Assembly: GCA_023133295.1 (NCBI GenBank)
Contig: JAGLWT010000116.1
Span: 13,218 to 77,217, forward strand
Length of the DNA stretch: 64,000 nt
Direction: 5' to 3'
Source: a bacterium
Lineage (GTDB): Bacteria; AUK180
Shown: in pieces, positions 171 to 51,595 of the stretch
How positions within the stretch are numbered: the stretch's first letter is position 1
How the letters are laid out: every line of letters begins with the position of its first letter
The notes under the pieces: generated by a model
The model's input: the letters and a program-made list of their open reading frames with translations, nothing else
Databases searched by the model: none
Told to the model about the DNA's origin: nothing
Program-made: the position numbers and the translations under genes

Positions 171-224
171 ACCTTTAATAGTGTAACAGATAAGGCTTCT
201 ATTTCCAAACACAGTAGCCAAGCG

Positions 225-420: not shown

Positions 421-788
421 GCTAAAAGGCGAGCATGTGGCTGTAATTCACCCGAATCCCGTAACAGGCCCTACCGAAGAGGCAATTATGGTGTTCGATC
501 TCAACTGGCTCTTTGATAAGGATGGGTTCGTTATCGCGGGTGTGGGATTAGGGAGAAGTTATGGCATCTGTAATCTGTTCCTCGAGATAATTTATCACTA
601 TGGCTTCATTGACATTAATGAATCGAATCCGACCGCTGAATACATGAACCGCTCACTGATATTGGAATTCGGTATAGGATTTAAATTGAAATAGACAACA
701 ATTCTGTCCGAAGAAGCTTTCAAATTCTGAACACACTTTGACACATACTTGAGAAATGTTATAATTATTCAGATCATAGGAGTTCGAA

Positions 789-1529
789 ATGAGAAAAAGG
801 GGTTCGTTCAGAGATTGCTATTTCATCCTATTGCTTTCTATATTTTTCATTATATTGGGCAGAACAGGATATTCGGATTCATTGAACATGAACTATGTTG
901 GGGGATTTCTGTGTCATAGAGTTGTAGAAACACATGCGACTACGGATACTCTGTATATAGCAACAGAAGAATTGGTAATAGTTGTTGACATCACAGATGA
1001 GAACTATCCATATCAGAAGGGATTCATTGAGCTCGATGCGTCCGTATATTCTATTGATATTGTTGAAAATATGGCGTATGTCGGAACCTATAACGGTCTG
1101 CGGATTTTTGATATCACAGATATTTCCGCACCGGTGGACCACGGGATGTATTCGACTTCCGAACCGGTTTCCAATTTAGAGGCGCAAGGATCCATGGTGC
1201 TTATGGTAGAAAGGGACGAGGGATTCAGACTGCTCGATGTCTCGGACCCGGCAAATCCCGTACTTGATTTCCAGCTGGATTCCTACAATGCCGAAGATGT
1301 ATGTATTCAGGATACCGCAGCATATATGCTTGAAAACGGCGGGCTTCTTATCTACGATATATCAAATTCTCAATCGCCGGCACTGTTAAGCGATACCACA
1401 TATCACAGCAGTCAACAGATAGATGTGGATAGTGATTTCGGAGCGATAATGGCATACAGCACCGTAAGAGTGTTAGACCTCTCGAATCTTACCGGACCTG
1501 TTCAAACCGATACTTTTTCTTACCAATGA
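789..1529 (+). CDS. LVIVD-repeat (beta-propeller) surface protein, N-terminal segment. It ends at an in-frame TGA and continues in the same frame as 1542..3455
   Basis: N-terminal signal peptide (MRKRGSFRDCYFILLLSIFFIILG). Repeated LVIVD-type units (LVIVVDITDENYP, LRIFDITDISAP, LLIYDISNSQSP, VRVLDLSNLTGP). Confidence 0.6.
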   Translation: MRKRGSFRDCYFILLLSIFFIILGRTGYSDSLNMNYVGGFLCHRVVETHATTDTLYIATEELVIVVDITDENYPYQKGFIELDASVYSIDIVENMAYVGTYNGLRIFDITDISAPVDHGMYSTSEPVSNLEAQGSMVLMVERDEGFRLLDVSDPANPVLDFQLDSYNAEDVCIQDTAAYMLENGGLLIYDISNSQSPALLSDTTYHSSQQIDVDSDFGAIMAYSTVRVLDLSNLTGPVQTDTFSYQ

Positions 1530-1541
1530 GATTTCGAAGAA

Positions 1542-3455
1542 TTGAGCATTTCCGGCAGCAAGGTTTATGTGGCATATGATGATGAGGGATTAAGCATACT
1601 TGACATCAGCGATCCGTATGATGTGGTTGAGATCGGGACCCATGACCCCGGCGACAGATTTCCAACATATCTTACAGCCGAAGTCTTTGGAGAATATGCT
1701 TTTATAGGGACATACAGCGGTGTGCGGATATATGATATATCTGTTTCCTCGGCACCCTCCTATTTATCATATTACAATTCTCCGGAATATCCTCACGAAA
1801 CGGTGTCCGTGGGTAATTACTCGTATACCGCAGCTGATGACGATGGTCTTGTGATAATGGACATCACTGACCGACAGCACCCGAAAGCGATAAATTATGT
1901 CTATTATGATATGGGACATTTCTACGGACTTGATGTAAAGGGAGATTACGCTTATGCCACCGACATCGGAACAATTAATATCGCCGCGCTGAAGGTCTTT
2001 GACATCTCAGACCCCTACAATGTGGATTTTGTCGCGTTCTACCCTATTTCCACCGACTGGTTCTGGGGGGTAACTATCTATGGGGATAATGCGTATATCG
2101 CATGTAAGGACCTGGGAATGCTGATCATCGATATCACTGGAACAGGGGTATTGAGCAAAGTAGGGGAATATGTTCCCTCCGGTGATGTCTATGATATCGC
2201 GATAGAAAATGATATCGCGTATGTCGGACACGCATATGGATTTTCCGTGGTAGATATTTCTGAACCGTCAAATCCCCTTGAGATAGGAACACTGAATTCA
2301 ATTGCTCCTGCGGGAAGTATCACATTAACAGGGGACGGGTACTGTTATATAGCATCTCCAGACCGCTTTTCGGTGGTGGACATTGACGACCCCAGGCATC
2401 CGCAATTTATAAAAAGCATAATTCCGGGAAACAATCTGACGTCTGTTTCCATGACGGGAGATTTTCTCTACGCAAGTACTTTTTATGATTATTATAATTC
2501 CAGGGTTATCGCCTATGATATCAGCGATCGGGAAAACCCCGTGCAGTCCGCCTACATGGATGTTCCCGGCTTGGCAATATACACTTCAGCTCATGGCAAT
2601 GAGATATATGCCGGAAACGCATACAGAGGGCTTTTCCTTCTTGACAATGAGTCCGCCGCTGTAATCGCGGGAACTGTTGTCAATACGATGGGGAGCAAGA
2701 TCTCGGAAGTCAAACTTGAGTTCACCACCGCGGGAGGCAGGAAGGTCCTTTGTAAATCGGATGAGGAGGGATACTATTTCACACATTTGAAAAAAGGTGC
2801 GGACTTCGCAGTCACGCCTTTCCATCCGATGTATTATTTGGAACCCGACAGCCGTACATATACGGCGATCAACGGCGATTTTTTAAATGATACTTATACT
2901 GCAATACCGAAAACGGCTTATACGCTTTCTGGGGATATTAAGGATCAGAATGATCAGGGTATTCCTGACGTTGAACTCGATATATATGTCCTCGGGGACC
3001 TGTTCAGGACGGTATTAACGACCGGAACAGGAAGTTATAGCTTCTCAGAACTTTTCGAAGGAGCAACATATACCGTTATCCCGGAAAGGGATTTCTTCCG
3101 GTTTGAACCCGGGCAGGTGGTTATTCCAGGTGTTTCAGGAGACCATATCCAGGATTTTACCGGATTTACGATCAAATCACTTGAATTTGTAAAAGCCTAT
3201 CCGAATCCTGTTATCTACCCCGATGAAGTATATGAGATCGCTTTTGAAGGATACACAGAGGATTGTACAATAAGAATCTTCACTATTTCCGGGGAACTGA
3301 TAATAGAGTTGACACCCGTAGGCCCACAGACCTTCTGGGACCTTAAGAACGATGAAGAGAAACTTATTGCCTCAGGCGTGTATATCTACTCGATCACGGA
3401 TCCTGAAGGCAATAGAATGGCCGGTAAGTTCGCTGTGATCAAAAGCGGGAATTAG
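1542..3455 (+). CDS. LVIVD-repeat protein (continuation) with two carboxypeptidase-regulatory-like domains and a T9SS C-terminal sorting domain
   Basis: More than ten LVIVD-like repeats (LSILDISDPYD, VRIYDISVSSAP, LVIMDITDRQHP, LKVFDISDPYN, LIIDITGTG, SVVDISEPSNP, SVVDIDDPRHP, IAYDISDRENP). CarboxypepD_reg-like segments (GTVVNTMGSKISEVKLEF...GYYFTHL; LSGDIKDQNDQGIPDVELDIYV). C-terminus YPNPV...TIRIFTISGELI...ASGVYIYSI...KFAVIKSGN matches a Por_Secre_tail type-A CTD. The track start is TTG. Probably the same gene as 789..1529. Confidence 0.7.
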   Translation: MSISGSKVYVAYDDEGLSILDISDPYDVVEIGTHDPGDRFPTYLTAEVFGEYAFIGTYSGVRIYDISVSSAPSYLSYYNSPEYPHETVSVGNYSYTAADDDGLVIMDITDRQHPKAINYVYYDMGHFYGLDVKGDYAYATDIGTINIAALKVFDISDPYNVDFVAFYPISTDWFWGVTIYGDNAYIACKDLGMLIIDITGTGVLSKVGEYVPSGDVYDIAIENDIAYVGHAYGFSVVDISEPSNPLEIGTLNSIAPAGSITLTGDGYCYIASPDRFSVVDIDDPRHPQFIKSIIPGNNLTSVSMTGDFLYASTFYDYYNSRVIAYDISDRENPVQSAYMDVPGLAIYTSAHGNEIYAGNAYRGLFLLDNESAAVIAGTVVNTMGSKISEVKLEFTTAGGRKVLCKSDEEGYYFTHLKKGADFAVTPFHPMYYLEPDSRTYTAINGDFLNDTYTAIPKTAYTLSGDIKDQNDQGIPDVELDIYVLGDLFRTVLTTGTGSYSFSELFEGATYTVIPERDFFRFEPGQVVIPGVSGDHIQDFTGFTIKSLEFVKAYPNPVIYPDEVYEIAFEGYTEDCTIRIFTISGELIIELTPVGPQTFWDLKNDEEKLIASGVYIYSITDPEGNRMAGKFAVIKSGN

Positions 3456-3699
3456 CGCAGTTATTTCAAGATAGCGAATTTTCCAGACTTATTTTCAGTT
3501 GAATGCCTTTGTGTTCTTCACTGTTAGGGCGAAGTATCCGATCTTGTCCGTAAGCGCCGATACACTTCAGCCAAAGTCATCCGACTGATGAGGATGGTTG
3601 TCCCGATATCTGCAAACTGCTACGGGATAAATTGCGTTTATTGCAAATTGCTTTATCATCAGATATGATCTCCCATTATCATTATAATTATGTATCATT

Positions 3700-3800
3700 T
3701 TCAGATTGTAATGCAAGAATTGTCTCCATTCCCTGCAGGAGATGGAGTCCCGATCAAGCCGGGAATGACGGAGGACAGGTCAAGCCCTGTCCCTACGATT
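3700..3800. repeat. Intergenic repeat modules C ('gtaatgcaagaat...ccattccctgcaggagatgg') and D ('ccgatcaagccgggaatgacggaggacaggtcaagccctgtccctacg')
   Basis: Near-identical copy at about 8467-8560. Module D recurs reverse-complemented at about 51866-51900, and its first half recurs at about 54813-54835. Confidence 0.6.
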
Positions 3801-3865
3801 TTGCGACAAATGCCATTTATCCAGCACTTTTCAAGAGTGCTGGACTACCGCCACTATTACTTTCC

Positions 3866-8745: not shown

Positions 8746-9207
8746 TCAGATGCCAATCCTGTAAACTTTTTGGAAACGCGCAAGGAACCATTTGTATGTC
8801 GCTGATTCGTCCCATGGCAAATATTTTACATTCACATTTTTTATCATTTTCCGGGCTATCGAAATATCCTTTTCCTTACGATTTTTCCTCAAGTCCGATA
8901 CAAATGCATTGTCGTCAAATACTTTCTCAAAGTATAATAGATACAGAAGAAAATTTCCCGGATCGTGGTTGATCTCATCCTCAAGTCTCTGGAGATATGT
9001 CAGATAAATAGGTTTTTTGATCGTACCAGCAGTTAGTCCGGGGCCGATCTTTTGGACATGATAGCCTCGGAGTGATTCCCATTTCGCACTTTTATACAAA
9101 GAACGATAAATAACACTATCGTCTGTTCTTTTATAACTGATAATCAGTGCGAGAACTCCAACTAACAACGCAATTATTGAAATAATTAATGATATTTTTA
9201 TTTTCAT
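8746..9207 (-). CDS. Hypothetical membrane-anchored protein (single N-terminal TM)
   Basis: MKIKISLIISIIALLVGVLALIISY TM anchor followed by a soluble domain. The likely start is the internal Met, placed immediately after the stop of the upstream gene. No recognisable family. Confidence 0.35.
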   Translation of the reverse strand: MKIKISLIISIIALLVGVLALIISYKRTDDSVIYRSLYKSAKWESLRGYHVQKIGPGLTAGTIKKPIYLTYLQRLEDEINHDPGNFLLYLLYFEKVFDDNAFVSDLRKNRKEKDISIARKMIKNVNVKYLPWDESATYKWFLARFQKVYRIGI

Positions 9208-9209
9208 AA

Positions 9210-10022
9210 TCATTCCATTGTGTTGCATACATGCGCACAGTCTACAGTTGAAGAAGTATCTGCCGATCCTTGAGTGCAAGTTACCTGATCACCATATATT
9301 TCTGCACACTTAATTTGACAAGCATCATGCCAATCAATTCCTTCCTTCATATTGGCTTCAACCCCCCAGCCTTTACACAGTTCATTCATTGCGACCTGTT
9401 TGTGCGTGTGACACGCACAGACCAAAATTGTTTGAGGTAAATAAAGATTGCCATCAGGATTCTCTACCATCCAATAAGTGGCCTCTAAATACATTTTGAA
9501 GATTGTCTCAAATTCTGGGTCCTGGATCCATGTTGTATGAATATATAATTCTTCAATCCGCTTCATGGCCGAAAAAAATTGTTTTTTATTTATCAAATGG
9601 GTTACAGCGTTAATTTTATGAGAAACTGCTTTTAAGTGACCAGCAGTATCAAAGCCGACCCAACCAAGATCAATGAAAGTTTGCATTCTTTCCAAAAAAG
9701 CAAAAAACTTAGGGTCTACAGGGATATATTCTCTATCATGCAAATCCCCCTCATCGCCTTTCAAGAAAGGGTTTTGGACCCTATCATGATCCACAGATAT
9801 TTGAATTTGGCATGGGTCTTCTTCATAAAGAAAAATGATATAGCCATTGTCATCAATTTCAAGAATATCAATCATATCTGAGAATTCACTATAATGAAGC
9901 GAATACTCACTACTTGTATTGAACCTATACAATGACTCTTCAGGTGTGGTTAATTCCTTATGTTCCTGACACCCTAAAAAAAAGACACCTAGGAAAACTA
10001 TAATAAGTAGATATTTTCTCAT
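9210..10022 (-). CDS. Hypothetical lipoprotein with a Cys/His-rich C-terminal region
   Basis: MRKYLLIIVFLGVFFLGCQ lipobox-type signal peptide. AGGAGG RBS before this ATG (the track ORF start is at 10070). The C-terminus CACHTHKQ...CKGWG...CQIKC...CTQG...CAHVCN suggests a metal- or disulfide-rich domain. Confidence 0.4.
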   Translation of the reverse strand: MRKYLLIIVFLGVFFLGCQEHKELTTPEESLYRFNTSSEYSLHYSEFSDMIDILEIDDNGYIIFLYEEDPCQIQISVDHDRVQNPFLKGDEGDLHDREYIPVDPKFFAFLERMQTFIDLGWVGFDTAGHLKAVSHKINAVTHLINKKQFFSAMKRIEELYIHTTWIQDPEFETIFKMYLEATYWMVENPDGNLYLPQTILVCACHTHKQVAMNELCKGWGVEANMKEGIDWHDACQIKCAEIYGDQVTCTQGSADTSSTVDCAHVCNTME

Positions 10023-10194
10023 ATCTCCTCCTACTGCCAGCAGTATAACACGGTCTACGATTAATAGCAAGCACCGTTTCTTCCTTTACAGACAATACAT
10101 TCTCCCGCTAAAATGTGGCAGAATGAAAGGCAAAGGGATGGATTCCTGATATTAAACCTTGTCCCTGGGGCATTGGTCCACTGGGTCACTGCTT

Positions 10195-10315: not shown

Positions 10316-10322
10316 TTTAGAT

Positions 10323-10863: not shown

Positions 10864-11610
10864 TTAATCCTCCCTTGAAAGTCTAGTGATCTGTGCGAAG
10901 GTTTCTGAAGATAAGCTTGCGCCGCCCACCAAAAAACCGTCTATATCTTTCATATTCATTAATTGTTTTGTGTTATCCGGCTTAACGCTGCCGCCATATA
11001 ATATGGATGTGGCATCACCGCAGCCTTTACAGAGTTTTTCAACCGTTTTACGGACAAAAGCATGTGCTTCCTGGGCGATTTCCGGCGTAGCCGTTTCACC
11101 TGTTCCGATAGCCCATACCGGTTCATACGCAATTATCAGGTCTGAGATACATCCGATGGATCTCAAGCCTTCTTTAAGTTGGCGGCCAAGAACATCAAAT
11201 GTTTTGCCTGATTTTCTTTCTTCCAGCGTTTCTCCAATACAGAATATCGGAATAAGATTGTTCTTCAAAGCGGAAATGACTTTGCGATTTAATAATTCGT
11301 CTTTCTCTCCGAAGACATGCCTTCTTTCAGAATGGCCGACAAGGATATATTTGCATCCAAGGTCACGGAGCATTCCGGGAGAGATCTCGCCTGTGAACGC
11401 ACCCTTTTCCTTATCATACATATTTTCTCCGCCATAAAGCATCTTGTCCTGCTCCTGAAAAAGGTGAAGGTAGATCGAAGGAGGAAAAATAATGTTCTTC
11501 ACACCCTCAATATCCGCCACCAATTGCGGAAAATCTTTAATGAAATCGGCAATCGCCAATGAATTCAAATTCATCTTCCAATTGCCTGCAACTATTTTTT
11601 CTCTCATCAT
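10864..11610 (-). CDS. tpiA: Triosephosphate isomerase
   Basis: IVAGNWKMN..., GHSERR, AYEPVWAIGTG and GGASL motifs. Its start overlaps the pgk stop as ATGA. Confidence 0.95.
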   Translation of the reverse strand: MMREKIVAGNWKMNLNSLAIADFIKDFPQLVADIEGVKNIIFPPSIYLHLFQEQDKMLYGGENMYDKEKGAFTGEISPGMLRDLGCKYILVGHSERRHVFGEKDELLNRKVISALKNNLIPIFCIGETLEERKSGKTFDVLGRQLKEGLRSIGCISDLIIAYEPVWAIGTGETATPEIAQEAHAFVRKTVEKLCKGCGDATSILYGGSVKPDNTKQLMNMKDIDGFLVGGASLSSETFAQITRLSRED

Positions 11611-12791
11611 TCCTCCAATGCCCTGAATCCGGGAAGGTTCACTCCCGATAACATCCCCAGCGAAGCTCCACCGCCGGTTGAGATGTGGGACATTTTATCA
11701 CTTTTATTAAATTTCTTTACCGACGAGGCGGAATCTCCTCCACCCACTACGGTAATGCCCTCGCACTCTGCCATCGCGTCAATAACGGCAACAGTGCCCC
11801 GGGCGTATTCATCTATTTCAAAGATCCCCATGGGGCCGTTGAATACAACAGAACCCGATTTAACTATCAGGCCGCTGAATAATTCACAGGTCCGCGGACC
11901 GATATCCACTCCGATATCCGAATCCTGCATGGCATTGACATCCCGGATCTCCTTGTACTTCGGAGATTCAATACTGTCAACCGCGAGAGTATCCAAGGGA
12001 AGTACTAGTTTATCACCCGCTCTTTCCATTATTCTCGATGCGATGTCAAGAGATTCCTCTTCCAGCAAAGACTTTCCGACATTATATCCCTTTGCCTTCA
12101 GGAAAGTGAACATCATTCCACCGCCGATAAGTATATGGTCGGCCTGCACTATCATTGTTTCCAATAGTCCTATCTTGTCCTTGACCTTTGCTCCTCCGCT
12201 TATCACCGAATACGGCCTTTCCGGTGTTGTGAGCTTTTCATTCAAATACATATACTCTTTTTCCACAAGGAAGCCCATCGCTTTGTTCTCCATGGGAAAA
12301 AGTCCGGGCAGAGTGAAGACGGAAGCATGTTCTCTGTGCATTGTACCAAAGGCATCATTCACATAGAATTTCGCGCCGAGGGCAGATAATTGTTTCGCAA
12401 ATTCTGTATCGCCTTTTTTCTCGGCCTTGTGAAACCGGAGATTCTCAAGCAAGAGAATTTGGCCCGGCTGAAGGTCAGAAACGCGGCTGTTGACATCCTC
12501 TCCGATCACTTGCTTCGAATATTTAACATTCGCGCTGCCAAGATACTCCTGTAATTTCTCAAATACGGGCTTCAGAGAAAATCCCTCTTCATAACCGATA
12601 CCGGAAGGGCGGCCCAAATGCGAAGCCACTATTATCCTAGCGTCTTTTTCCAGTAGATATTTGATCGTCGGCAGGGCGGCATCTATCCTTTTAGTATCTT
12701 TAATAATACCGTCTTTAACCGGGACATTGAAATCCACCCTAAGAAAAACTACATCGGCTTTCCCGATGGTAAGCCGCTTTATCGAGTTCAT
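11607..12791 (-). CDS. pgk: Phosphoglycerate kinase
   Basis: ASHLGRP, FHKAEKK, TGGGASL, GGGDS and NGPMG motifs typical of Pgk. Confidence 0.95.
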   Translation of the reverse strand: MNSIKRLTIGKADVVFLRVDFNVPVKDGIIKDTKRIDAALPTIKYLLEKDARIIVASHLGRPSGIGYEEGFSLKPVFEKLQEYLGSANVKYSKQVIGEDVNSRVSDLQPGQILLLENLRFHKAEKKGDTEFAKQLSALGAKFYVNDAFGTMHREHASVFTLPGLFPMENKAMGFLVEKEYMYLNEKLTTPERPYSVISGGAKVKDKIGLLETMIVQADHILIGGGMMFTFLKAKGYNVGKSLLEEESLDIASRIMERAGDKLVLPLDTLAVDSIESPKYKEIRDVNAMQDSDIGVDIGPRTCELFSGLIVKSGSVVFNGPMGIFEIDEYARGTVAVIDAMAECEGITVVGGGDSASSVKKFNKSDKMSHISTGGGASLGMLSGVNLPGFRALEE

Positions 12792-13831: not shown

Positions 13832-14782
13832 CTATCTAAACAATAAACTGATTCCTAAATGATTTGTCTCGCCGAGATCACCGAAGGGAACATAGGCATA
13901 ATCGAACTGCAGAGTAAGAATATCAACCTTTCTGTTGCCCTGGGTTTTCTGGAAAGTATGATCAAAACCAAATCCAAAGCCTATACTTCCTATCTCCACA
14001 TTGGAATATCCCACACGAAGAGGAATGGCGCTGAACAAGGAATACTCAAGGCCCACAGAGATCACCGCAGGATTACCCGAAGGTATGGATGCCTGAAGCG
14101 AAAGATCCATTCCTTTGATGAGATTATAATTTCCGCCGATAGTAATATTCATAGGTATCTTTTCTGTCGGTATTTCATAATCGCCCGTGACATCCCGCTC
14201 GTATAAGAGGCCTGAGCCGAGATTCGAAATAGCAAGACCGACATTTCCATTGCCTATCTTATACTTCATACCGATATCCATAAGAAAGGTCTCTGCGAGA
14301 ACATTCGCAAGTTCTTCTTTGTAAAATTTACCCGCAACGGCAAAGGAGAAGTTATCTCCTAATTTTTTCCCGTATGTCAAAAAGAATTGATTGTAACTCA
14401 CATCGAACTGCTCTACCGACTCTTCCCAGCTTCCCCATGTAAATGCGTCTATGGGCTCTGTAAAAAACACATTGACCGCAAGGCCGAAGAAATCTGTTTC
14501 CGTGAAGGGAATGCAGAACGCGAAATATTCCATGGATGTATCCACGAGGTAATTTGTCTGGCCGATTGAAACAGAAGCCGCGGTAAATGATGTTACATTC
14601 GCGGGGTTGTAGAATATCGCCAAGGGTTCATTGCTTGAGGTGACCATAGCATTTCCCAGTGAGAACGCCTTTGCTCCGATGGGCATTAAGAGAAATGATC
14701 CGGAGGTCTCACCGTTAGAAACCGCAAATGTGGATACTGCAAAAAGGATGACCGCCAGCGTTATTATTATTTTTTTCATCAT
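13832..14782 (-). CDS. Outer-membrane beta-barrel protein, FadL/TodX/PorV-like (NPA hatch motif). Putative cognate partner of the upstream T9SS cargo
   Basis: Signal peptide [23 protein letters not shown]-terminal [22 protein letters not shown] motif, like the FadL NPA hatch. Alternating hydrophobic beta-strand pattern. Ends in an aromatic-rich C-terminus. Lies 8 nt downstream of the 1081-aa CTD protein. Confidence 0.5.
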
Positions 14783-29750: not shown

Positions 29751-31412
29751 TCATTTCTCAATTTTATAATCTCCCATTACGAGAATATCGATCCCTGTGC
29801 CGCTAAATGTATTTATCGCATCCTGAGGAGTGCATACGATCGGCTCTCCCCTGATATTGAAAGAGGTATTCAAAACCAACGGGATGCCCGTAAGTTTTTC
29901 AAATTCCCGTATTAGAGAATAATATCTCCCATTCTGTTCTTTACTTACCGTTTGAACCCTTGCCGTTCCGTCGACATGTACAACTGCAGGTATTTCTTTC
30001 CGCTTTTGCTGAACTGTATCGAAAACAATTGTCATATAAGGAGATTTACCGCAGCCGATAAAATAATCTCCGGCTTTTTCCTCAAGAACACTTGGTGCAA
30101 ACGGGCGGAAACCCTCTCGATGCTTGACCTTTTCATTAATAAGGTCTTTCATGTCCTTCTTTCTGGGATCCGCAAGAATGCTTCTGTTGCCGAGGGCGCG
30201 TGGTCCGAATTCCATTTTCCCCTGATACCAACCGACTATTTTCCCCCTGCTTATTTCCAAAGCCGTATCCTTTTCTATTTCACTTGATCTTGTAAAATGA
30301 AGTTTATTCTTTTTGAGAACATTCAATATCTCTTCATTGTCAAAAGCAGGACCCAGATAGGCATTATTCAACGGCAATTTACTTTCATTACCAAGTATAT
30401 TATAGTATCCGTACAGAGCGGCGCCAAGCGAAGTTCCCGCGTCATTGGAAGCGGGCTGGACATACATATCTTCGATATCGGTTTCTCTGAGCAACCGTCC
30501 ATTAGCAACCGAGTTCAGGGCGACGCCTCCTGCCATACAGAGATATTTCAAGGAGTATTTGTTGAGATAATACCGTACTACCTCTAGAAGCACTTCCTCT
30601 GTAACTTTTTGTAAAGAAGCGGCCATATCCATTTCAAGATCCGTAAATTCAGTAGCATTGTCATGGGGATAGAAGTTATGCTTTCTTTCAAATTTTTCAG
30701 TGATATAACTCTCCCAGCCATGTGAGAGATTGAATTTTGAAAGATCAAAAGAAAACCGTCCTTTGCCTACCCTTACAAGTGACATGATCTCAGAAAAATA
30801 CTTCGGTGTACCGTAAGGAGCCAGGCCCATGAGCTTACCTTCTCCATTATGTGCTTTGAACCCAAGATACTGAGTGATATCAGAATACAGCATTCCCAGG
30901 GAATGAGGGTAGTTCACATGTGCCACCTGTTCAATAAGGTTACCCCTTCCGATTCCAACGGTCATCGTCTCGAATTCCCCTGAATGATCAATTGATAGTA
31001 TAAGGGATTCGTCGAAGCCGCTCGGATAGAAAGCGGAGGCCATATGCGCCATATGATGTGATATCTTGACAAAGCGGGCATCTCTTAATATATCAATAGC
31101 CCTTACCTTTTTCCTGATGCCCAAAAGAGATGATACATATGAGCTCCTGGAATGAAGGTATTTTAACGATGAGGGAAATCGCAGCAGAAGAAATCCCGCC
31201 CGCTGAAACAGCATGGGAGTATTGAGCCAGGGAAAAACGATCAGCTCAGGAGAAGTATCATACTTGTTGCCGATAAGCTCAAGGGATTCATGCGGAAAAA
31301 CCGATGTATGTTTTTCTCTTGAAAGACGCTCCTCCTCGATCGAGAATACGGATTCCCCTGAGATCACAGTTATAGAAGAATCATGTGTATAACAATTCAA
31401 TCCCAGTATCAT
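29751..31412 (-). CDS. Carbamoyltransferase, NodU/CmcH family
   Basis: MILGLNCYTHDSSITVI...EEERLSREKH...HHMAHMASAFYPSGFDESLILSIDHSGE...ALNS...SFN matches the NodU/CmcH N- and C-terminal domains along its length. Confidence 0.85.
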   Translation of the reverse strand: MILGLNCYTHDSSITVISGESVFSIEEERLSREKHTSVFPHESLELIGNKYDTSPELIVFPWLNTPMLFQRAGFLLLRFPSSLKYLHSRSSYVSSLLGIRKKVRAIDILRDARFVKISHHMAHMASAFYPSGFDESLILSIDHSGEFETMTVGIGRGNLIEQVAHVNYPHSLGMLYSDITQYLGFKAHNGEGKLMGLAPYGTPKYFSEIMSLVRVGKGRFSFDLSKFNLSHGWESYITEKFERKHNFYPHDNATEFTDLEMDMAASLQKVTEEVLLEVVRYYLNKYSLKYLCMAGGVALNSVANGRLLRETDIEDMYVQPASNDAGTSLGAALYGYYNILGNESKLPLNNAYLGPAFDNEEILNVLKKNKLHFTRSSEIEKDTALEISRGKIVGWYQGKMEFGPRALGNRSILADPRKKDMKDLINEKVKHREGFRPFAPSVLEEKAGDYFIGCGKSPYMTIVFDTVQQKRKEIPAVVHVDGTARVQTVSKEQNGRYYSLIREFEKLTGIPLVLNTSFNIRGEPIVCTPQDAINTFSGTGIDILVMGDYKIEK

Positions 31413-32374
31413 TCAATTCTCCGTATATGATCGGCCAGAACCCCTGCAATATATCTATTGCCTTCCGGAGAAAAGTGAATATCATCCACATAAAGGTCAT
31501 CATAAAGCAAGAGATCGGTTTTGCGCATTTCCTGTGAGATATCCACAAAATCTACTCTGCATTCCTGAAACACTTCCCTCATTACTTCCTGATATGAAAA
31601 GTCCGCTCTATTGAGTAATTGATATCTTAGCGGAGTAATTATAAATATGGGGTGGATCTTTCTCTTCTCGCAGGTCATTTTTATTCTCTCTATCTTCTTT
31701 GTCAGATCTTTGCGCAAATACGGATCATTATATTTCATGGCAGCGGAAGCGTAAAATTCTTTGCTGTTATAAGCTTTTTCATAATTTCCGGCAAAGAGGA
31801 GCTTTGCTAATGCAAATAAATATGAATACGAAAAAGGGCGCTTTGTTACTATAACCTCGGCGTCTGTGTCAAGTTCCAGAAAACCTATCCCGTTCAGATG
31901 AAATGCATAAAGTATATCATCGATAAAATACTGCCATACTACAATTTCGGGGGGATTTTTCTGGAGATTCTTCTCCAATATCACAATATTTTGATCAAGT
32001 CCATAGCCGCAAACCCCCATATTGTGAACATTGAATTCTTTCAATTCGCCTTGAAGAAACACCGGGTAGGTTTCATCGTCCTCAACTCCCAGGCCGGCAG
32101 TAATGGAATCGCCTATGCAGATAATGTTTTTTTCTGACTTCTCTATGGTATTCAAATTCCTGTACCCTGATGAATTTATTGTAAATTTCTTATTTCGCCA
32201 CATATATGACGATGATTTTCTATAACGATATCCAAGTTCACTGTCTTTTTCGAAAATTCTTCTGTCATAATCCTGTAGCTTTGATATGGGGTCCAATAGT
32301 CTTGCAAGGCCTTCAAAAAGCAGAAAAAGGATCAAAAAAAACAATAAATACTTAGACAGCCGTTTTATCAACAA
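31409..32374 (-). CDS. SGNH/GDSL-family hydrolase-like protein
   Basis: N-terminal TM. IICIGDSITAGLGV block-I motif. Later DDIHFSPEG, similar to the DxxH catalytic block. Overlaps both flanking carbamoyltransferase genes. Confidence 0.55.
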   Translation of the reverse strand: MLIKRLSKYLLFFLILFLLFEGLARLLDPISKLQDYDRRIFEKDSELGYRYRKSSSYMWRNKKFTINSSGYRNLNTIEKSEKNIICIGDSITAGLGVEDDETYPVFLQGELKEFNVHNMGVCGYGLDQNIVILEKNLQKNPPEIVVWQYFIDDILYAFHLNGIGFLELDTDAEVIVTKRPFSYSYLFALAKLLFAGNYEKAYNSKEFYASAAMKYNDPYLRKDLTKKIERIKMTCEKRKIHPIFIITPLRYQLLNRADFSYQEVMREVFQECRVDFVDISQEMRKTDLLLYDDLYVDDIHFSPEGNRYIAGVLADHIRRIE

Positions 32375-40402: not shown

Positions 40403-42393
40403 TAACTTCTCCAGTCAAGATAGAATTTGAAAGCCCTCTGCGGAACCGTATTATCAGCCCTTGCCGAATTATCCTGAATATAATACCTTCTTTTGTACCC
40501 TATTTTCAGCTTCAGATTCTTCCACCAGAGTTTTCTGCTGTAATCAACCGACCATTCACGGTATTCCTCAGAGGTGGATGAGTCCGACTTCCTGTAGATA
40601 TTATTATCCGTGGATTTAAACGAGAACAGGAAGTTACCCAGGGCGGGTTTCCAATTCGCCTTCAGCTGATAGGATGCATTGGCCTTTCTCTGAGGCAGAG
40701 AATGTTCCATATAGGTATTGAAGCGGTAAATGCCTGTCAGGCGCAATTTCTCGGACAAGTTGTAATTAAAAGTCACATAAGTCCTTGTGCTTTTGTCCGA
40801 TTCGGAATAATCCGTAATATATGAATCATTCAAGTTCCTTGCTACATCATTATCTTTATACCGCTGCGTCACCGCCATATCAACAAGCGGCGTTATCGGA
40901 TATTGAAATTTTATCGAGCCGTCGAAATTGGTCTGAAGAGTTGAATAATACCTCCAGATATCCGCCTTGGGAGTGATCTCCAATTTTCCCAATTTTAAAA
41001 GCGCATCGAATTTAATACCCCTTTCGTTCTGGGCGGAAAGCTCCGCAGGAGATTCATATGTGGCGAATGTATATGAATAGGGATTTTCAAATTCCCTGTG
41101 GAAATCCCTGTAAATAAAATTGATCCGCGCGGTTTTCTTTTTCATGGTCATCTTCAATAAGAAGCCGTGAGCGCCTGATTCCAATTGCCCGAATTCCGCC
41201 TGAATAGCCGACTTTTTAAAAGGAGTCCACCGCATATTCAATCCCCATACCCATGCATCGAACATGCCTTCAGAGTAATTATTCGGCTTGTAGAGGTCAG
41301 AGGCATAGATCTCCTTATTGTGGTAAACGGTCATTCCGATAAAATTGTCCTCTCCGCCGATGCGCATATGCCCGCCGAAAATGGTCTTGTTAACATAATT
41401 CGGAATGGAAAGAGCGATCGTATCTTCGTCAAAATCGCTCTCTGAATACGCCGATTCATCCGCGCTGAAATCGGCCGAACTGACCAGAAGATGTGAATAC
41501 TGATAGAGCTTGTCCTGTATCTGTGACGCGAAGATGAATATCTCCGCCGGTCCCAGCACCGTTCGCATACCGGCACCAAGGAGGTTCAGATTGAAATCGG
41601 AAGTAACATCACTGGAACGGTCGCCCTTGAAGCCGTACAGATTCTTGTTATCGGATTCATTAAAGACCACGCCAAGACCGAAGCCCGCCATATAATTTCC
41701 CGTGATCAATTGGAAGTTCTTTGTATTCCAGTTTATAAATACCTTAGGCAGAGGCCATACCGTTTTCTTCGGGTCAACGATAACTTCGCCCGGCTGAAGG
41801 AAGATCTCGCCGTTTTCATCATAGGTAACAGGCCCGTCATATTCCTCAAAGCTGTATGTGGCGTATCTGCGTTCCTGAAGAATTCCTATATCCAATACCT
41901 TTCCGAGACGGAAGCGGTATTTGAACTGTACATAAGGCGTCTCTTCTGATTTGGTCGTGGAAGAAACCTCGTCCCTGAATTTAAAGTTGAGGTCGGTTTT
42001 CCTTTTCAATACCTTCTTACCCTTGACCTTCTTTATCTTTACCGGGGGAATGATGCGCATAAATCCCTCAACAAAACTGAAGTCTGTACGCCCGAGGATC
42101 CTTTTGAGGGGCTTGTCATCTTTAAATGGCCGGTTCTTGATGATCTCATCAGCGATCTCAAGGGTTACCTTGGGAAGCCGCAGCAGCTCACTCTTAGGAG
42201 CGCTATTGACCTCTATAGGATTTGAGTAAAGTTCCCAAAGCATAATATACTGCTCTTGATCGATATCTCCGGACTCGTACAGATCGGCGATCTCGTCTTC
42301 CGTAGATATGGGTATCGAAAGATCATAATCCTGAGCAAATGCAAAAGAGGCCAAAAACAAAACGATCAGAAATAGTATTCTACCTTTCATCAT
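40402..42393 (-). CDS. Secreted or outer-membrane protein with an N-terminal ComEA-like helix-hairpin-helix motif followed by a large beta-rich (putative beta-barrel) domain
   Basis: Signal peptide MMKGRILFLIVLFLASFAFA. Then IEVNSAPKSELLRLPKVTLEIADEIIKNRPF, a ComEA-type HhH (NxNxA..eLxxLPGIg.xxAxxIixxR). Then about 550 aa of alternating beta-strand-like sequence rich in Tyr/Phe/Asn. Its start overlaps the stop of the upstream gene as ATGA. Confidence 0.5.
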   Translation of the reverse strand: MMKGRILFLIVLFLASFAFAQDYDLSIPISTEDEIADLYESGDIDQEQYIMLWELYSNPIEVNSAPKSELLRLPKVTLEIADEIIKNRPFKDDKPLKRILGRTDFSFVEGFMRIIPPVKIKKVKGKKVLKRKTDLNFKFRDEVSSTTKSEETPYVQFKYRFRLGKVLDIGILQERRYATYSFEEYDGPVTYDENGEIFLQPGEVIVDPKKTVWPLPKVFINWNTKNFQLITGNYMAGFGLGVVFNESDNKNLYGFKGDRSSDVTSDFNLNLLGAGMRTVLGPAEIFIFASQIQDKLYQYSHLLVSSADFSADESAYSESDFDEDTIALSIPNYVNKTIFGGHMRIGGEDNFIGMTVYHNKEIYASDLYKPNNYSEGMFDAWVWGLNMRWTPFKKSAIQAEFGQLESGAHGFLLKMTMKKKTARINFIYRDFHREFENPYSYTFATYESPAELSAQNERGIKFDALLKLGKLEITPKADIWRYYSTLQTNFDGSIKFQYPITPLVDMAVTQRYKDNDVARNLNDSYITDYSESDKSTRTYVTFNYNLSEKLRLTGIYRFNTYMEHSLPQRKANASYQLKANWKPALGNFLFSFKSTDNNIYRKSDSSTSEEYREWSVDYSRKLWWKNLKLKIGYKRRYYIQDNSARADNTVPQRAFKFYLDWRS

Positions 42394-43868
42394 TCACCTC
42401 CCTGGCCATTATCAACAGCGGGATCGTATTCTCCCGCTTTTATCATATTTCTCATATTCTCAAAGGTCTTGGGACCTATTCTGGGAACATTCATAATATC
42501 CTCTATGTTCTTAAATCCGCCGTTTTGCTTCCTGTAGGAAAGAATGTTCGCCGCTGTCTTCACTCCTACGCGCGGAAGTTTCTGCAGCTCCGCACTGTCC
42601 GCGGAGTTGATATCTATTAACGGTCCGCTGTAAGAGGTTTTCGAGGAGGTGGAAGTGGCCGAGGAACTGCGTGACGGCACAATTTGAGTCGATGACTCAT
42701 ATTTACTGCCAACGGTAATATGGGACCGTATTTTTTCAACGGTCTTAACGCCTATTCTAGAGACATTCTGCAGGTCTTCCACTCTTCTGAACGGCCCGTT
42801 CACCTTCCGGTATTCCACTATACGCTCTGCTGTCTTGCTGCCTATGCCCGGGATCGCGGAAAGCTCCTCCGCATTTGCAAGATTAATATTTATCCTGCCG
42901 TTGATCACCGAGAGTTCGGGTTTGGATTCTTTGTTTCCGAGTCCAAAGGCAAAGGTATGTGTGGCGCCCAGCTCCGGATGTACCTTCAAAGCATATGAAA
43001 CTGCCATTCCGCCGCCGTAAATTCCGAGGCCGGCAGAATAGGAAAAACGCTCCGAGTGAAGATATTCAATGCCGCCAAAGAGAGCAAAGTTATCTGTCAT
43101 ATCGTACTTGATACCAAAATGATATTCGGAGTAAAGGTCCCGTTTAGCCGCGAAATTTTCCAGATATGCGTCATAGTCGGCAAAATCACCGACCGCTTCT
43201 TCTATCTCCGCTTCCTCGGCATCGGTATAACTCCCGAGTCCGTAAGTATGTTTCAGAAACGATGCGGGAATATTCGCGATAAGGTTGAAATAGATATTTA
43301 ATTGGGTAAAAGGGGTATATGAAACCCCTATGCCGACATCCCTCGCCATGTATTCCTGGCCGATATACGGTGCTGAAACATTTCTGAATCTTGCTCCGAA
43401 ATAAAGATCGTTATTTACAAAGAGCACCATTCCCATATCCAGGGCAAGTGTGGATGCCGAACCGATCTCGTCGATAACGACACTCATATACTTCCCCTTG
43501 AAACCAAGCGCGAAATTGGAGCCCACATTGAATGCGCCGGCAAATTGTATTTGCTGTTCCGCATACAGCCATGAGCCGAATTTTACAAGGTTCAGGCCCA
43601 TTGTCATCGAGCCGAAGCGCTTGATATAATTTGCTGAGGTGTTTGCCAGTTCATCCATGCCGTATAGCCGGGATGTGGTAAAATTCAAATGGACATTCTC
43701 CAGATAGGCCAGCATGGCGGGATTATTGTATATCGCCTCAGGTCCCATAAGCACCAGATTGGCTCCACCGGTAGCAAGGTTGAGGGGCATATTCCCCTCA
43801 AATTCAAAGGCAGTCCATCCATTGATGGCTAGAATGATCGAGAAAACTACTATTATTATTTTTTTCAT
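42390..43868 (-). CDS. Fusion protein: FadL/PorV-like outer-membrane beta-barrel (NPA motif) plus two C-terminal ComEA-type HhH DNA-binding domains
   Basis: Signal peptide. GGANLVLMGPEAIYNNPAMLAYLEN N-terminal hatch-like motif, paralogous to the proteins at 13832..14782 and 46947..47831. About 320 aa of barrel-like sequence. Then ININLANAEELSAIPGIGSKTAERIVEYRKVNGPFRRVEDLQNVSRIGVKTVEKI and IDINSADSAELQKLPRVGVKTAANILSYRKQNGGFKNIEDIMNVPRIGPKTFENM, two full ComEA HhH domains separated by a Ser-rich linker. Confidence 0.6.
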   Translation of the reverse strand: MKKIIIVVFSIILAINGWTAFEFEGNMPLNLATGGANLVLMGPEAIYNNPAMLAYLENVHLNFTTSRLYGMDELANTSANYIKRFGSMTMGLNLVKFGSWLYAEQQIQFAGAFNVGSNFALGFKGKYMSVVIDEIGSASTLALDMGMVLFVNNDLYFGARFRNVSAPYIGQEYMARDVGIGVSYTPFTQLNIYFNLIANIPASFLKHTYGLGSYTDAEEAEIEEAVGDFADYDAYLENFAAKRDLYSEYHFGIKYDMTDNFALFGGIEYLHSERFSYSAGLGIYGGGMAVSYALKVHPELGATHTFAFGLGNKESKPELSVINGRININLANAEELSAIPGIGSKTAERIVEYRKVNGPFRRVEDLQNVSRIGVKTVEKIRSHITVGSKYESSTQIVPSRSSSATSTSSKTSYSGPLIDINSADSAELQKLPRVGVKTAANILSYRKQNGGFKNIEDIMNVPRIGPKTFENMRNMIKAGEYDPAVDNGQGGE

Positions 43869-43877
43869 GGCAGCCCC

Positions 43878-46800
43878 CTACATCCTTTTCCCAATGGCAA
43901 CGACTTCTTTCTTATAAATAGATTTCGTTTCATTTCTCAATTCGATATATAGAATATACACACCCATTGGCAGCGGCCGGTTGCGATTATCATCGCCGAT
44001 CCATTTCACAGAGAAAGGCCCCGGCGGAAGAACTGTCTTTTCCGATAATGTCTTTACTTCTCTTCCGGCAATGTCATATACACGCAGCGTGAGCACTCCC
44101 TCGGAAACAACATGCAGGGAGATCTCGGTATATAATCTATTCGGATCGCTGCCGTCATTAACAAAGCTCCTCGGGGAGATCTCGATCTGCGTAATATTGC
44201 CGGCGGGTATCTCCGTTTCATCGCAAGGCCTTCCCATCGTGGGGTTTTCCGTGATCGTCCAATCGGCAAGCGTGTTCGTATCCGTAAATTCCGCATCACG
44301 CGTTATAGATGATTCTTCCTCCACATTATTTGATCTGATGGCATTGGTAGCGGCATAGATCCAATCGTAAATATATCCGCTGTCCGGCTGCTCGCCAAGA
44401 GGATAATCGGGATACTTCGCCATATTGGGGAAAAATTTATAGATCTCTCCGTCCCAATGATATGCTCCTAATTTGGGATCGGATGAAAAATATACCTCAT
44501 AGAAATCGCTGTATTCAATATAAGAGATATCTATCAATTCTGAAACGACCCATGTCGACGCGGCGGGAACCACCTGTCCGTCGGCTATAAGATCGCCGTT
44601 CTCGTCAAAGGGGAATATTTGTTCTTCTGAATTTCTTTCAGCCCATACAACGGCATCTTTGATATTTCCGGAAAAATCCCGGAACTCAAGGTTCTCATCC
44701 GTGCTGGAAAGCGAGAGTTTCGAAAGATAGATCGTTAATATTCCGTCACTTCCCGCGGTAAGTTCGCTGTCATTTTCATTTCCTACGGTGATAATGACAA
44801 ATTCACCGGTTTTCAAGGTCGTTCCGGGCTGAATTATCGCAATTACGCTGTCCGTCAGCATGAAACAACCACCGACATCAACACCTGCTCCGGAATTGCC
44901 GTCATCCTTGCAATAAAGCTCTATCCAATCCGGAAATCCTGAGGGTGAGTAAAAATAAACCTCTGAGATCACGATATCCGTTTCGGCGGGCAATGTATCG
45001 ATCGGATGGCCGTAACCCGGCGTAACGACCAGGGTATTCTTCCAGTCAACTTTATCATTGGTATCCGTATTGTAATAATCTCTGACAATAGAGCCCTTTG
45101 AAAAATCCGATGAAACACAGTCGATCTCTTCGCCGTCAACGGGAGAGCCGTAGCCTATGTTCCATTGGCCGACAGCAAAAGCTTCCTCAAAGTCATCATC
45201 GGACAGGGAGCCGCCCTGATCCGCCCAGCAGACAAGGTCTATCAATTCGCCATTCGGCGTAAATATGCCCATTTGCTCGTCCGAATCGGTTATCCCCGTA
45301 TCGGCGGTCGTCACAAAATACGATGCCTTGGTCAGGGGAAGTTTCCAGTCATCCGCATTATCATATATCAATAATCCGTAATCTCCTGTGCGGAAGATAC
45401 CGGATGAAAGTTTTTTATCGGCTTTTTCGTTCAGGTCCGTAATGGAGGCGCGGGTGCCGTAAGTGGATATCGAATCAAGATCATCAAGATAAAATCCTTT
45501 AAGGTCGATACCGTTTCCATTATTACCGTCATCGATCATGTAAAACTCCACAAAATCCTCGCCATATGTCCCGATAGAATCTACTTCGGTAATTAGGATC
45601 ACAGGGTCCTTTACCGTTATGGACTCTAAATAGTCCGAAACAGAATTTCCGGTGTCCGAGATCGCATTTGCTTTTTGATCCGCTCCCGTGACCCAGAAAC
45701 CTATGATCGAGAGATTGGGTATATCCACGGTAGAACCCTTGGTAAGGTCAGCTCCGCCTTTATAAACCAGGGTATTTCCCCATATAATGCCGTCTTCGCT
45801 GCCGTCAGCGCCGGAGCTGTAGGCGAGTGTTACCGTGCCGGAATCTACGAATACTCCAGTAGAGGTCTTGATCTCATACCATAAACTCAAGGTAGATGTA
45901 TCTTCAATACCGCCCTCTTCTGAAAGTATCAGCTCAAACGATGTGGCTGAAAGAGAAACACGGGGGAAATCTCCCGAAGGAGACATGGAAACAGGAGAGG
46001 GGCCCGTAATATCTATCGGCAAGACCGTAAGGTCCGCGGAAACAATACCATCCACTCCTGTATTTTCCGGTGTTATTTCAATAACTCCCGAAGACAGGCA
46101 TCCGCCGAAATCAACCGTACCCTCACCATTGATCAAGGTCAGCGCGATCGTGTCAGTGCCTCCCGAAAAATGTCCGGTTCCGGCAGGAGAAGCGGATATC
46201 GTAATATCTAGTGTCGGAGACGAGGTATAGACGGAGTAGTTCTCATCAAGAAGCTTAACCGTGACCGTCGTGGTCTCCGGCGTACCCCCGGTAACTTCGA
46301 TCCTTGTGGGGTATACAAAAGCACGGAGATTGATCGAGGACTCGGTAGGCCCGACCGAATTGGGGTGGCGCGGCGTGCCGTAGATAGGGTTGCCCAGATA
46401 ATCGGTGCCGTATATGGTAATAAGATCATTATCCGCCCAATTGGAAGAATCGTTGCCGTCCTTTCCGAGAATGATCTTTTCCATGGAAACGCCGCCCGAC
46501 TGGCCGGCGAACCATCCATCTGAGCAGTCGACTTGATCAATGAGATTAGCGGAGTTATCATACAGGCGGAGGTTTTCTCCGTCATTTGAAAGTTTGCTGT
46601 AGCCAAGGTCTTCAGAATCGCTTTCGATATCGGCGATCGCCTGTTTTACCGGCTCGGTACTGCTTCTGTATTCTATCAGATAATATGCTCCCGATCTGAT
46701 CGTGGTTGTGTTAGCAGTGGTAAGGTCAACAATTATTCCACCGCTATCCCAAATATACCATCCGGTAAGATCGATATCGGAACCCGTGGGATTGTAAAGC

Positions 46801-46940
46801 TCGATCCATTCGTACCCGCTCTGGGCAATGGTCCCGCTCCATGAAAGCTCTGAAATAACAACATCACCGCTTGAAGCGGAATGTATCGCAAGGGGCAGTA
46901 TCGAAAGGATGATCAACAATGCTAATATTTTTTTCATCAT
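43878..46940 (-). CDS. Large secreted multi-domain protein (1020 aa) with at least three lamin-tail-domain (LTD) repeats and a T9SS C-terminal sorting domain
   Basis: Signal peptide. LTD signatures: GDVVISELSWSG...GYEWIELYNPTGSDIDLTGWYIWD; PVILITEVDSIGTYGEDFVEFYMIDDGNNGNGIDLKGFYLDD; DIVISEVYFYSPSGFPDWIELYCKDDGNSGAGVDVGGCFML. C-terminus LTLRVYDIAGREVKTL...GVYILYIEL...KKEVVAIGKRM matches a Por_Secre_tail. Confidence 0.65.
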   Translation of the reverse strand: MMKKILALLIILSILPLAIHSASSGDVVISELSWSGTIAQSGYEWIELYNPTGSDIDLTGWYIWDSGGIIVDLTTANTTTIRSGAYYLIEYRSSTEPVKQAIADIESDSEDLGYSKLSNDGENLRLYDNSANLIDQVDCSDGWFAGQSGGVSMEKIILGKDGNDSSNWADNDLITIYGTDYLGNPIYGTPRHPNSVGPTESSINLRAFVYPTRIEVTGGTPETTTVTVKLLDENYSVYTSSPTLDITISASPAGTGHFSGGTDTIALTLINGEGTVDFGGCLSSGVIEITPENTGVDGIVSADLTVLPIDITGPSPVSMSPSGDFPRVSLSATSFELILSEEGGIEDTSTLSLWYEIKTSTGVFVDSGTVTLAYSSGADGSEDGIIWGNTLVYKGGADLTKGSTVDIPNLSIIGFWVTGADQKANAISDTGNSVSDYLESITVKDPVILITEVDSIGTYGEDFVEFYMIDDGNNGNGIDLKGFYLDDLDSISTYGTRASITDLNEKADKKLSSGIFRTGDYGLLIYDNADDWKLPLTKASYFVTTADTGITDSDEQMGIFTPNGELIDLVCWADQGGSLSDDDFEEAFAVGQWNIGYGSPVDGEEIDCVSSDFSKGSIVRDYYNTDTNDKVDWKNTLVVTPGYGHPIDTLPAETDIVISEVYFYSPSGFPDWIELYCKDDGNSGAGVDVGGCFMLTDSVIAIIQPGTTLKTGEFVIITVGNENDSELTAGSDGILTIYLSKLSLSSTDENLEFRDFSGNIKDAVVWAERNSEEQIFPFDENGDLIADGQVVPAASTWVVSELIDISYIEYSDFYEVYFSSDPKLGAYHWDGEIYKFFPNMAKYPDYPLGEQPDSGYIYDWIYAATNAIRSNNVEEESSITRDAEFTDTNTLADWTITENPTMGRPCDETEIPAGNITQIEISPRSFVNDGSDPNRLYTEISLHVVSEGVLTLRVYDIAGREVKTLSEKTVLPPGPFSVKWIGDDNRNRPLPMGVYILYIELRNETKSIYKKEVVAIGKRM

Positions 46941-46946
46941 ATACTC

Positions 46947-47831: not shown

Positions 47832-47834
47832 GAT

Positions 47835-51371: not shown

Positions 51372-51595
51372 ATATTTCCTCTCGAACCCTCATTGAGTTC
51401 ATCTTTTATTTTTTTCATTTTCTCCAGACGGGCCTTCGTCTCGTCCGCGTCAATGGAAATGTCAACATTCAGAACATCTCCTTCCTTAACCCCTTGCGGA
51501 AGATGCGCGATGGGGATGAGCATTTCTCCGCCACGGTCAAGGACCACAACGGCGAGCTCTTCTTCAAATCTGTCTATAACTGCTGTGAGAATCAT
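51368..51595 (-). CDS. Small DUF3006-like protein (75 aa)
   Basis: MILTAVIDRFEEELAVVVLDRGGEMLIPIAHLPQGVKEGDVLNVDI resembles the DUF3006 consensus (IDRFEGdfAVlel.dG..l.vP...LP.gakEGDVL). Its start overlaps the stop of the upstream LTD gene by 4 nt. Confidence 0.4.
   Translation of the reverse strand: MILTAVIDRFEEELAVVVLDRGGEMLIPIAHLPQGVKEGDVLNVDISIDADETKARLEKMKKIKDELNEGSRGNI

Follow-up and report, generated by a model that had tools for sequence, protein, structure and literature searches.

The window analysed here is a 64,000-nucleotide stretch of contig JAGLWT010000116.1 (positions 13,218 to 77,217, forward strand; assembly GCA_023133295.1) from an uncultured cold-seep bacterium of the GTDB lineage AUK180. 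Near its 5′-end lies a gene for an LVIVD-repeat protein, the reading frame of which is interrupted by an in-frame TGA at 1527–1529 (codon 247). Positions 1527–1544 read TGA GAT TTC GAA GAA TTG, preceded by TTC TCT TAC CAA and followed by AGC. The open reading frame (ORF) at 789..1529 (246 amino acids, aa) and the ORF at 1542..3455 (637 aa), which opens with the TTG at 1542–1544, lie in one frame and are parted only by the TGA and four codons. This arrangement, first described in a prediction made from the sequence alone (the original prediction), is confirmed by both sequence and translation. The gene and its signals comprise the following features.

738..765, plus strand: predicted sigma-70-type promoter with TTGACA, a 16-nt spacer and a TG-extended TATAAT (12/12 matches)
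778..782, plus strand: Shine-Dalgarno sequence AGGAG, 6 nt 5′ of the ATG at 789, conserved in the sister assembly L002
789..1529, plus strand: 5′ fragment of 246 codons and TGA, with a signal peptide-like start and predicted blades 1–5 of propeller 1; NCBI gene KAU32_08610
789..872, plus strand: signal-peptide-like N-terminus (MRKRGSFRDCYFILLLSIFFIILGRTGY...), seen in the translation and collinear with the N-terminus of the outgroup homolog P0002
891..2650, plus strand: LVIVD repeat region of 14 predicted blades of ~42 residues, forming two putative seven-bladed beta-propellers (from Pfam LVIVD, the repeat register and a model of P0002)
1527..1529, plus strand: premature stop TGA at codon 247; orthologs have TGG (Trp), the sole difference being A versus G at 1529, and the Logan assembly L004 has the same TGA
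1530..3455, plus strand: 3′ continuation of 641 codons and TAG, with predicted blades 6–14, a CarboxypepD_reg-like region and a C-terminal sorting domain (CTD); NCBI gene KAU32_08615, called from the TTG at 1542
2922..3083, plus strand: CarboxypepD_reg/SdrD_B-like Ig-type domain, residues 712–765 (28.1 bits, below the Pfam cutoff of 32.3)
3198..3431, plus strand: C-terminal sorting domain resembling type A of the type IX secretion system (T9SS), residues 804–881 (TIGR04183 22.9 bits against a cutoff of 23; PorZ C-terminal region E = 9e-18)

The two ORFs are parts of one 888-codon gene. Beyond the TGA the frame remains open for 641 codons (the stop-to-stop interval), for which we estimate a chance probability of ~1e-18, assuming ~6% stops per random codon at 41% GC. 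The read-through product of 888 residues matches Pfam LVIVD with 112.1 bits (cutoff 20.2; E = 7e-33) in five stretches. Measured from Asp to Asp of the LvivD motif, successive repeats are spaced by 41, 42, 40, 40, 42, 44, 42... residues (range 40–44), and the step that crosses the stop, from D230 to D272, measures 42 residues. The repeat register is uninterrupted, and the periodicity across the stop that was claimed at the outset is borne out.

A homolog search over 5.8 billion proteins returned a single close cluster and otherwise no homolog above 35% identity. Proteins P0001 (GCA_030600895.1) and P0122 (GCA_048635215.1), of 794 aa each, are 96–97% identical to the window product and read ...FSYQWDFEELSISG..., i.e. 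FSYQWDFEEL, continuously across codon 247. The outgroup P0002 (35% identity) is collinear from the signal peptide onwards and forms one ORF across codons 93 and 247; its synteny is uninformative, the gene lying at a contig end among other neighbours. Orthologs that are naturally two genes had been named as an outcome that would speak against an interrupted gene, and this is not the case at codon 247, where P0001, P0122 and P0002 are all single ORFs. At the DNA level, codon 247 is TGG in the sister metagenome-assembled genomes (MAGs) L001 and L002 (lineage B, the window being lineage A), which differ from the window at that codon only by a G instead of an A at 1529. Given the TGG of the close orthologs and this A/G difference, the stop is, on sequence comparison, a TGG-to-TGA transition in the window lineage, that is, a single G-to-A nonsense mutation of a Trp codon. 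Nonsense mutation had been one of several causes proposed, and it is the one that the closest orthologs support. Further alleles were sought in JGI metagenomes and none were found, and a search of GTDB species representatives returned only the L002 record again and matches confined to the CTD.

The window derives from an Illumina metagenome of sample RS_12 (SAMN18200500 = SRR13892600; ~70 Gb), which belongs to the South China Sea Site-F cold-seep data set (PMC9357000). A short-read metagenome could potentially yield the TGA as a sequencing, assembly or consensus artefact, with most cells in fact having G at 1529 and an intact gene, and both assemblies with this TGA come from one run. A 3,487-bp stretch that includes the TGA is 100% identical in the Logan assembly of SRR13892600 (L004), for which another assembler was used. 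An assembler artefact, one form of the error that the original prediction had allowed for, is unlikely because this independent assembly of the same run has the same base. Deep sequencing (~70 Gb), the placement of the window on a 125-kb scaffold, and a real in-frame TGA in two separate assemblies of the sister lineage, such that alleles of this kind do occur, also count against an artefact, which is considered very unlikely in any of its forms.

The ancestral product was probably a surface protein exported by Sec and the T9SS, consisting of a signal peptide, two seven-bladed LVIVD propellers, an Ig-like domain and a T9SS CTD. Its N-terminus (MRKRGSFRDCYFILLLSIFFIIL) has a basic n-region and a 13-residue hydrophobic core, both seen in the translation, and resembles a Sec signal peptide. 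The evidence for the fold is taken from an AlphaFold model of P0002, the collinear and uninterrupted homolog at 35% identity, and not from the window protein. This model has an N-terminal helix at residues 2–14, a predicted local distance difference test score (pLDDT) of ~90 over residues 20–615, a predicted template modelling score (pTM) of 0.71 and ~56 strands. In the PDB, the model is most similar to tandem seven-bladed propellers such as Utp21 (TM ~0.6), and PorZ (PDB 5m11) is also among the matches. PF18962 is recorded as a faint match for the ortholog P0001. The signal peptide-like start is confined to the N-terminal part of the gene and the CTD to its C-terminal part, as had been stated from the first inspection.

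NCBI annotates the locus as two genes, and it is conceivable that the interruption is a functional split, in which two separate proteins are made, the second by termination-reinitiation at TTG 1542. This codon lies 12 nt past the stop (CTG in lineage B), and lineage B has an ATG 3 nt past a stop of its own at codon 93, as described below. However, no promoter or Shine-Dalgarno sequence comparable to those of the gene itself was found in a sequence scan ahead of TTG 1542, and the cut falls inside blade 6 of the predicted beta-propeller. The second product would have no signal peptide and the first no CTD, and neither in the orthologs nor in the outgroup is the ORF broken at the site. A functional split is therefore highly improbable.

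Elsewhere in the window, TGA acts as a regular stop. It terminates 14 of the 31 ORFs of at least 230 aa and is the commonest genuine stop. The pgk gene (11607..12791, minus strand; 394 aa, a normal length) ends in a TGA that forms a 4-nt ATGA overlap with the start of tpi, and a second ATGA overlap joins 29751..31412 and 31409..32374. In a survey of all same-frame junctions between long open intervals across the window, only the LVIVD gene proved to be interrupted among ~50 genes in 64 kb. All other same-frame junctions are normal, with an ATG within 0–10 codons of the stop and a new N-terminus or signal peptide. Four consecutive same-frame genes at 42390..51389, with gaps of 1–3 codons, were considered as interrupted genes and rejected, each having its own ATG and signal peptide. 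The earlier statements that TGA is a genuine terminator elsewhere, as at the end of pgk, and that a genome-wide recoded genetic code is unlikely thus agree with the stop usage of the window.

The RNA that follows the stop is poorly structured. Its minimum free energy of -7.4 kcal/mol compares with a shuffle mean of -12.7 (z = +2.1) and is weaker than in 199 of 200 shuffles. Folds of 1527–1600 and 1500–1620, likewise weaker than shuffles, contain no stimulatory hairpin and none resembling a selenocysteine insertion sequence (SECIS), an element that had been judged unlikely beforehand. An Rfam search with E up to 5 gave nothing relevant downstream of the stop, only a chance plastid-intron match. 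The base at position +4 after the TGA is G. The residue aligned with codon 247 is Trp in the orthologs and Ala in P0002, and in neither case Cys or selenocysteine. No suppressor tRNA, tRNA-Sec or tRNA-UCA is present in the window, where the only tRNA is Leu(GAG).

Programmed recoding, either as selenocysteine or under a reassigned code (table 4 or 25), is consistent with the identity of the interrupting codon; in LVIVD consensus repeats, moreover, the two repeat positions often hold Gly, as codon 93 does in the outgroup. Against this, TGA ends pgk and 13 other large ORFs, some with ATGA overlaps, and the orthologous residue is Trp. A reassigned code is rejected by the stop usage of the window and the junction survey, and selenocysteine by the missing hairpin, the missing Rfam match and the Trp, rather than Cys or selenocysteine, of the orthologs. 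The probability left to programmed recoding is practically negligible. Programmed readthrough, which was also among the original proposals, finds no support either, given that there is no downstream structure, that the stop is not conserved and that the ortholog residue is Trp. Recoding, selenocysteine and a structured readthrough signal at codon 247 are all not supported.

Lineage B keeps TGG at codon 247 and carries a stop at a different position in the same gene.

1065..1067, plus strand: codon 93; GAA (Glu) in the window, TGA in L001 and L002, Gly in the outgroup P0002

The codon-93 TGA is located at 394–396 in L001 and at 392–394 in L002 and, judging from the alignment, is a second, independent in-frame stop. 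A GGA ancestor at codon 93 would have been one step from both GAA and TGA. Gene calls in both sister MAGs are also split, into 59 or 92 aa and 794 aa. Positions 1–148 of L001, at the start of JAUVUR010000209.1, are an inverted copy of the 5′ region of the gene (window 898..752), which marks a fold-back assembly chimera; a codon-10 difference in L001 is unreliable because it adjoins this chimeric contig start.

A third lineage (lineage C) is represented by five assemblies from the same seep, L012–L016, which include a 1.44-Mb scaffold of SAMN18200498 and a 190-kb contig. Its locus was reached via the adjacent TPR gene, and it is 94–95% identical to the window over 3773–8484 and 10298–13285. The LVIVD gene had no blastn or tblastn match in the five lineage-C assemblies, and of the spacer downstream of it no more than 85 bp (3632–3716) is retained. 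Since the locus has no match and the protein database holds no other homolog above 35% identity, lineage C apparently is without the LVIVD gene. On this comparison of genomes, the species group can dispense with the gene, because lineage B has an independent TGA and lineage C has no copy at the locus.

The lineage-C site is occupied instead by ~5 kb of short ORFs (e.g., L014 7865–12804 against window 1–3773). Neither these replacement ORFs nor the upstream 460-aa ORF had Pfam matches, and one mismatch between L012 and L014 alters the ORF calls at the site. The end of synteny is marked by a repeat.

3705..3798, plus strand: intergenic repeat element, with a second copy at 8468–8561; it marks the end of synteny with lineage C

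The copies at 3705–3798 and 8468–8561 coincide with two synteny or indel breakpoints between the window and lineage C. The repeats are ~94 bp long, 88–91% identical and similar to repetitive extragenic palindromic (REP) elements or miniature inverted-repeat transposable elements (MITE), with a GGACAGG...CCTGTCC hairpin. A third, partial copy lies at 8713–8746, and related repeats are found at 250–290 and 10199–10239. Those at 3705–3798 and 250–290, the sole copies inside the 1–4200 scan, had no Rfam match. The repeats bracket a block of TPR, bactofilin, coiled-coil and PilZ genes. Window 8484–10298, from PilZ to tRNA-Leu and with ORFs 8746..9288 and 9210..10070 of no known kind, is missing there in lineage C (L014 7910–8756), where a 78%-identical copy of window 9416–10240 adjoins the TPR gene, pointing to a small cassette that is mobile or has been shuffled. 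Recent horizontal acquisition of the LVIVD gene is not indicated, its GC content (0.444) and third-position GC content (0.457) lying within the range of native genes. Within lineage C, gene calls differ between L008 and L009 over their positions 4631–6631 (SPL-family, 223 versus 286 aa; MurJ, 501 versus 329+ aa), and these differences may represent strain-specific stops, frameshifts or assembly errors.

Different inactive states of a surface-protein gene in two lineages could also be explained by phase variation, with a surface antigen reversibly switched on and off. However, simple-sequence tracts are absent from both sites; the window change is a point transition, and that of lineage B involves only runs of T2–3 and A3–4. 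The promoter is flanked by no invertible element or inverted repeats, and a scan of window 1–11000 gave no inverted repeats. The phase-off variant of the original prediction, taken in the strict sense, is thus not supported, as there is no repeat tract at the site, and a reversible switch is scarcely to be expected.

Lineages A and B differ in the gene by 31.5 synonymous and 29.5 nonsynonymous differences, with no indels in 2,667 nt. The ratio of nonsynonymous to synonymous rates (dN/dS) is 0.265, and neutrality is rejected (P = 1.3e-6), which shows that the gene was under purifying selection in the past. Four intact neighbours have dN/dS values of 0.11–0.39, from which the LVIVD gene does not differ (Fisher P = 0.88). 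The promoter at 738–765 is 100% conserved between the window and L002, whereas the next 55 nt upstream carry five substitutions, and the start codon, promoter and Shine-Dalgarno sequence are identical between lineages A and B. Considering the constrained dN/dS, the absence of indels and these conserved signals, the gene was functional for most of the A–B divergence, and both stops look recent. The only changes that are necessarily younger than the codon-93 stop are the differences between L001 and L002. These comprise four nonsynonymous and no synonymous differences, one of which adjoins the chimeric contig end, a pattern weakly in line with relaxed selection.

The intact promoter and Shine-Dalgarno sequence and a dN/dS that is not raised would also be expected if UGA readthrough were tolerated or exploited and the full-length protein still made at reduced dosage. 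At codon 247, readthrough would restore the very residue of the ancestor, Trp, and the in-frame stops in all three gene-bearing assemblies are TGA, never TAA or TAG. Basal stop-codon readthrough in bacteria is 1e-3 to 1e-2, reaching ~10% under stress (PMC10057733), and 0.3% of genomes with the standard code have suppressor tRNAs (PMC13092985). On the other hand, the two stops are at different, non-conserved sites, and the second replaces Glu or Gly rather than Trp. The downstream RNA offers no stimulatory structure, only one of the ~50 genes of the window is interrupted while TGA is its commonest genuine stop, the window has no suppressor tRNA, and the third lineage is entirely without the gene. 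Readthrough of this kind is accordingly thought improbable, if less so than any of the other alternatives. Organism-specific UGA-to-Trp readthrough is nevertheless the only non-trivial alternative left by the data. In its boldest form, the lineage would read UGA as Trp to an appreciable extent, for instance by means of a tRNA-Trp with a 4-bp anticodon stem or a suppressor tRNA, and the TGA alleles would be selected as stress-responsive dosage “dimmers”; this version is very doubtful.

By far the most probable explanation is that a recent nonsense mutation has turned an accessory T9SS cargo gene, itself dispensable, into a young pseudogene or null allele. Loss of the gene may have been neutral or advantageous. 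Release factor RF2 would terminate translation at codon 247, inside blade 6 of propeller 1, leaving a 246-residue product with five of seven blades and no CTD, the propeller of which could not close. Judging from what is known of Sec, the T9SS and beta-propellers, this product would enter the periplasm and be degraded rather than displayed. The 641 codons beyond the stop lack a separate promoter, ribosome-binding site and signal peptide, and reinitiation at TTG 1542 would at best yield a cytoplasmic fragment. Because the first product is incomplete and the second is without expression signals, the allele would be null, or a weak hypomorph if basal misreading of UGA by tRNA-Trp reinserts the original Trp and gives traces of wild-type protein.

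Several observations weigh against the inactivation of a T9SS cargo gene. All three gene-bearing assemblies carry a premature TGA, and an intact allele was not found; the lineage-B assemblies are of low coverage (~3x for L002) and perhaps not fully independent. Both assemblies of the window strain share the single run SRR13892600, so that a mixed TGG/TGA population, with a minority TGG allele, or a consensus artefact may underlie the base at 1529. The dN/dS shows no relaxation, and a TGA in every gene-bearing assembly together with unrelaxed dN/dS would also fit a gene that is used via UGA readthrough. As for the assignment to the T9SS, the CTD score of 22.9 bits is just below the curated TIGR04183 cutoff of 23, and the signal peptide is called from the n-region and core visible in the translation.

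A young pseudogene at this locus would be ordinary and already known in kind, with no new mechanism. It resembles nonsense-mutation unitary pseudogenes in having a single in-frame stop at a position for which orthologs have a sense codon, with the remaining ORF, promoter and ribosome-binding site intact, in a dN/dS that reflects past constraint, and in relatives that are independently inactivated or gene-free. It differs from them in nothing essential, the window case being known from sequence alone. Decoding of UGA as Trp by a near-cognate tRNA-Trp or one with a 4-bp anticodon stem has been described (PMC13092985), and the window shares with it an in-frame UGA where orthologs have Trp, but here a single site in one strain is concerned, translation otherwise ends mainly at UGA, and the window does not include the tRNA-Trp gene.

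LVIVD-repeat cell-surface proteins (PF08309) were first described by Adindla et al. 2004 (PMC2447325). The window gene shares with them tandem LVIVD repeats of ~42 residues in a secreted protein with a predicted beta-propeller fold, and differs in being interrupted. Type A CTD cargo of the T9SS (TIGR04183/PF18962) likewise combines an N-terminal signal peptide with a C-terminal Ig-like sorting domain, but the window CTD falls 0.1 bit under the curated cutoff and the host is an unclassified lineage. Like PorZ, the window protein has two predicted beta-propellers followed by a CTD; identity with PorZ is rejected, as the PorZ equivalog model scores 64 bits against a cutoff of 260. To our knowledge, no biochemical function has been established for the LVIVD family.

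In the databases, KAU32_08610 and KAU32_08615 are best combined into a single pseudogene entry with an internal stop at a Trp codon, instead of standing as two hypothetical proteins, and the same merger applies to the 92/59-aa and 794-aa pairs in the sister MAGs. The locus provides a small population-genomic example of ongoing gene loss in an uncultured cold-seep bacterium, with two nonsense knock-outs and one absence, and hints at relaxed or negative selection on a surface protein, for instance through phage or grazer pressure.

The genomic context makes a T9SS-type sorting route for the LVIVD protein plausible, because PorV/PorQ-family genes in the window adjoin other large cargo-like proteins. 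With a cutoff of 90 bits, one PorV/PorQ-family protein (13832..14782) passes at 115 bits and a second (46947..47831) falls short at 77.6 bits. The core T9SS components SprA/Sov, GldKLMN and PorU were not seen in the 64-kb window, the remaining genome not having been searched. On the minus strand at 13832–18035, the PorV/PorQ-family gene 13832..14782 lies directly downstream of a gene for a 1081-aa protein with a FlgD_ig-like CTD. Also on the minus strand, at 42390–51371, the PorV/PorQ-like gene 46947..47831 lies between genes for two Lamin-tail-domain giants (1178 and 1020 aa), a set followed by HHH_3/ComEA-like genes and ComEC. Both regions are cargo-plus-shuttle arrangements.

Among the other genes of the window, those at 4667–5632 (minus strand) and 5955–8012 (plus strand) include two tandem bactofilin genes adjoining genes for a PilZ-domain protein and for a 685-aa coiled-coil protein rich in glutamate and lysine, which together may represent a cytoskeletal or cyclic di-GMP module. 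The label “Candidatus Atribacteria bacterium” on L002 is unconfirmed, and is doubtful given the T9SS-type genes. The valyl-tRNA synthetase (58028–60685, minus strand) has its nearest labelled relatives at ~51% identity, in Calditrichota, Bacillota and other MAGs, consistent with a poorly sampled deep lineage.

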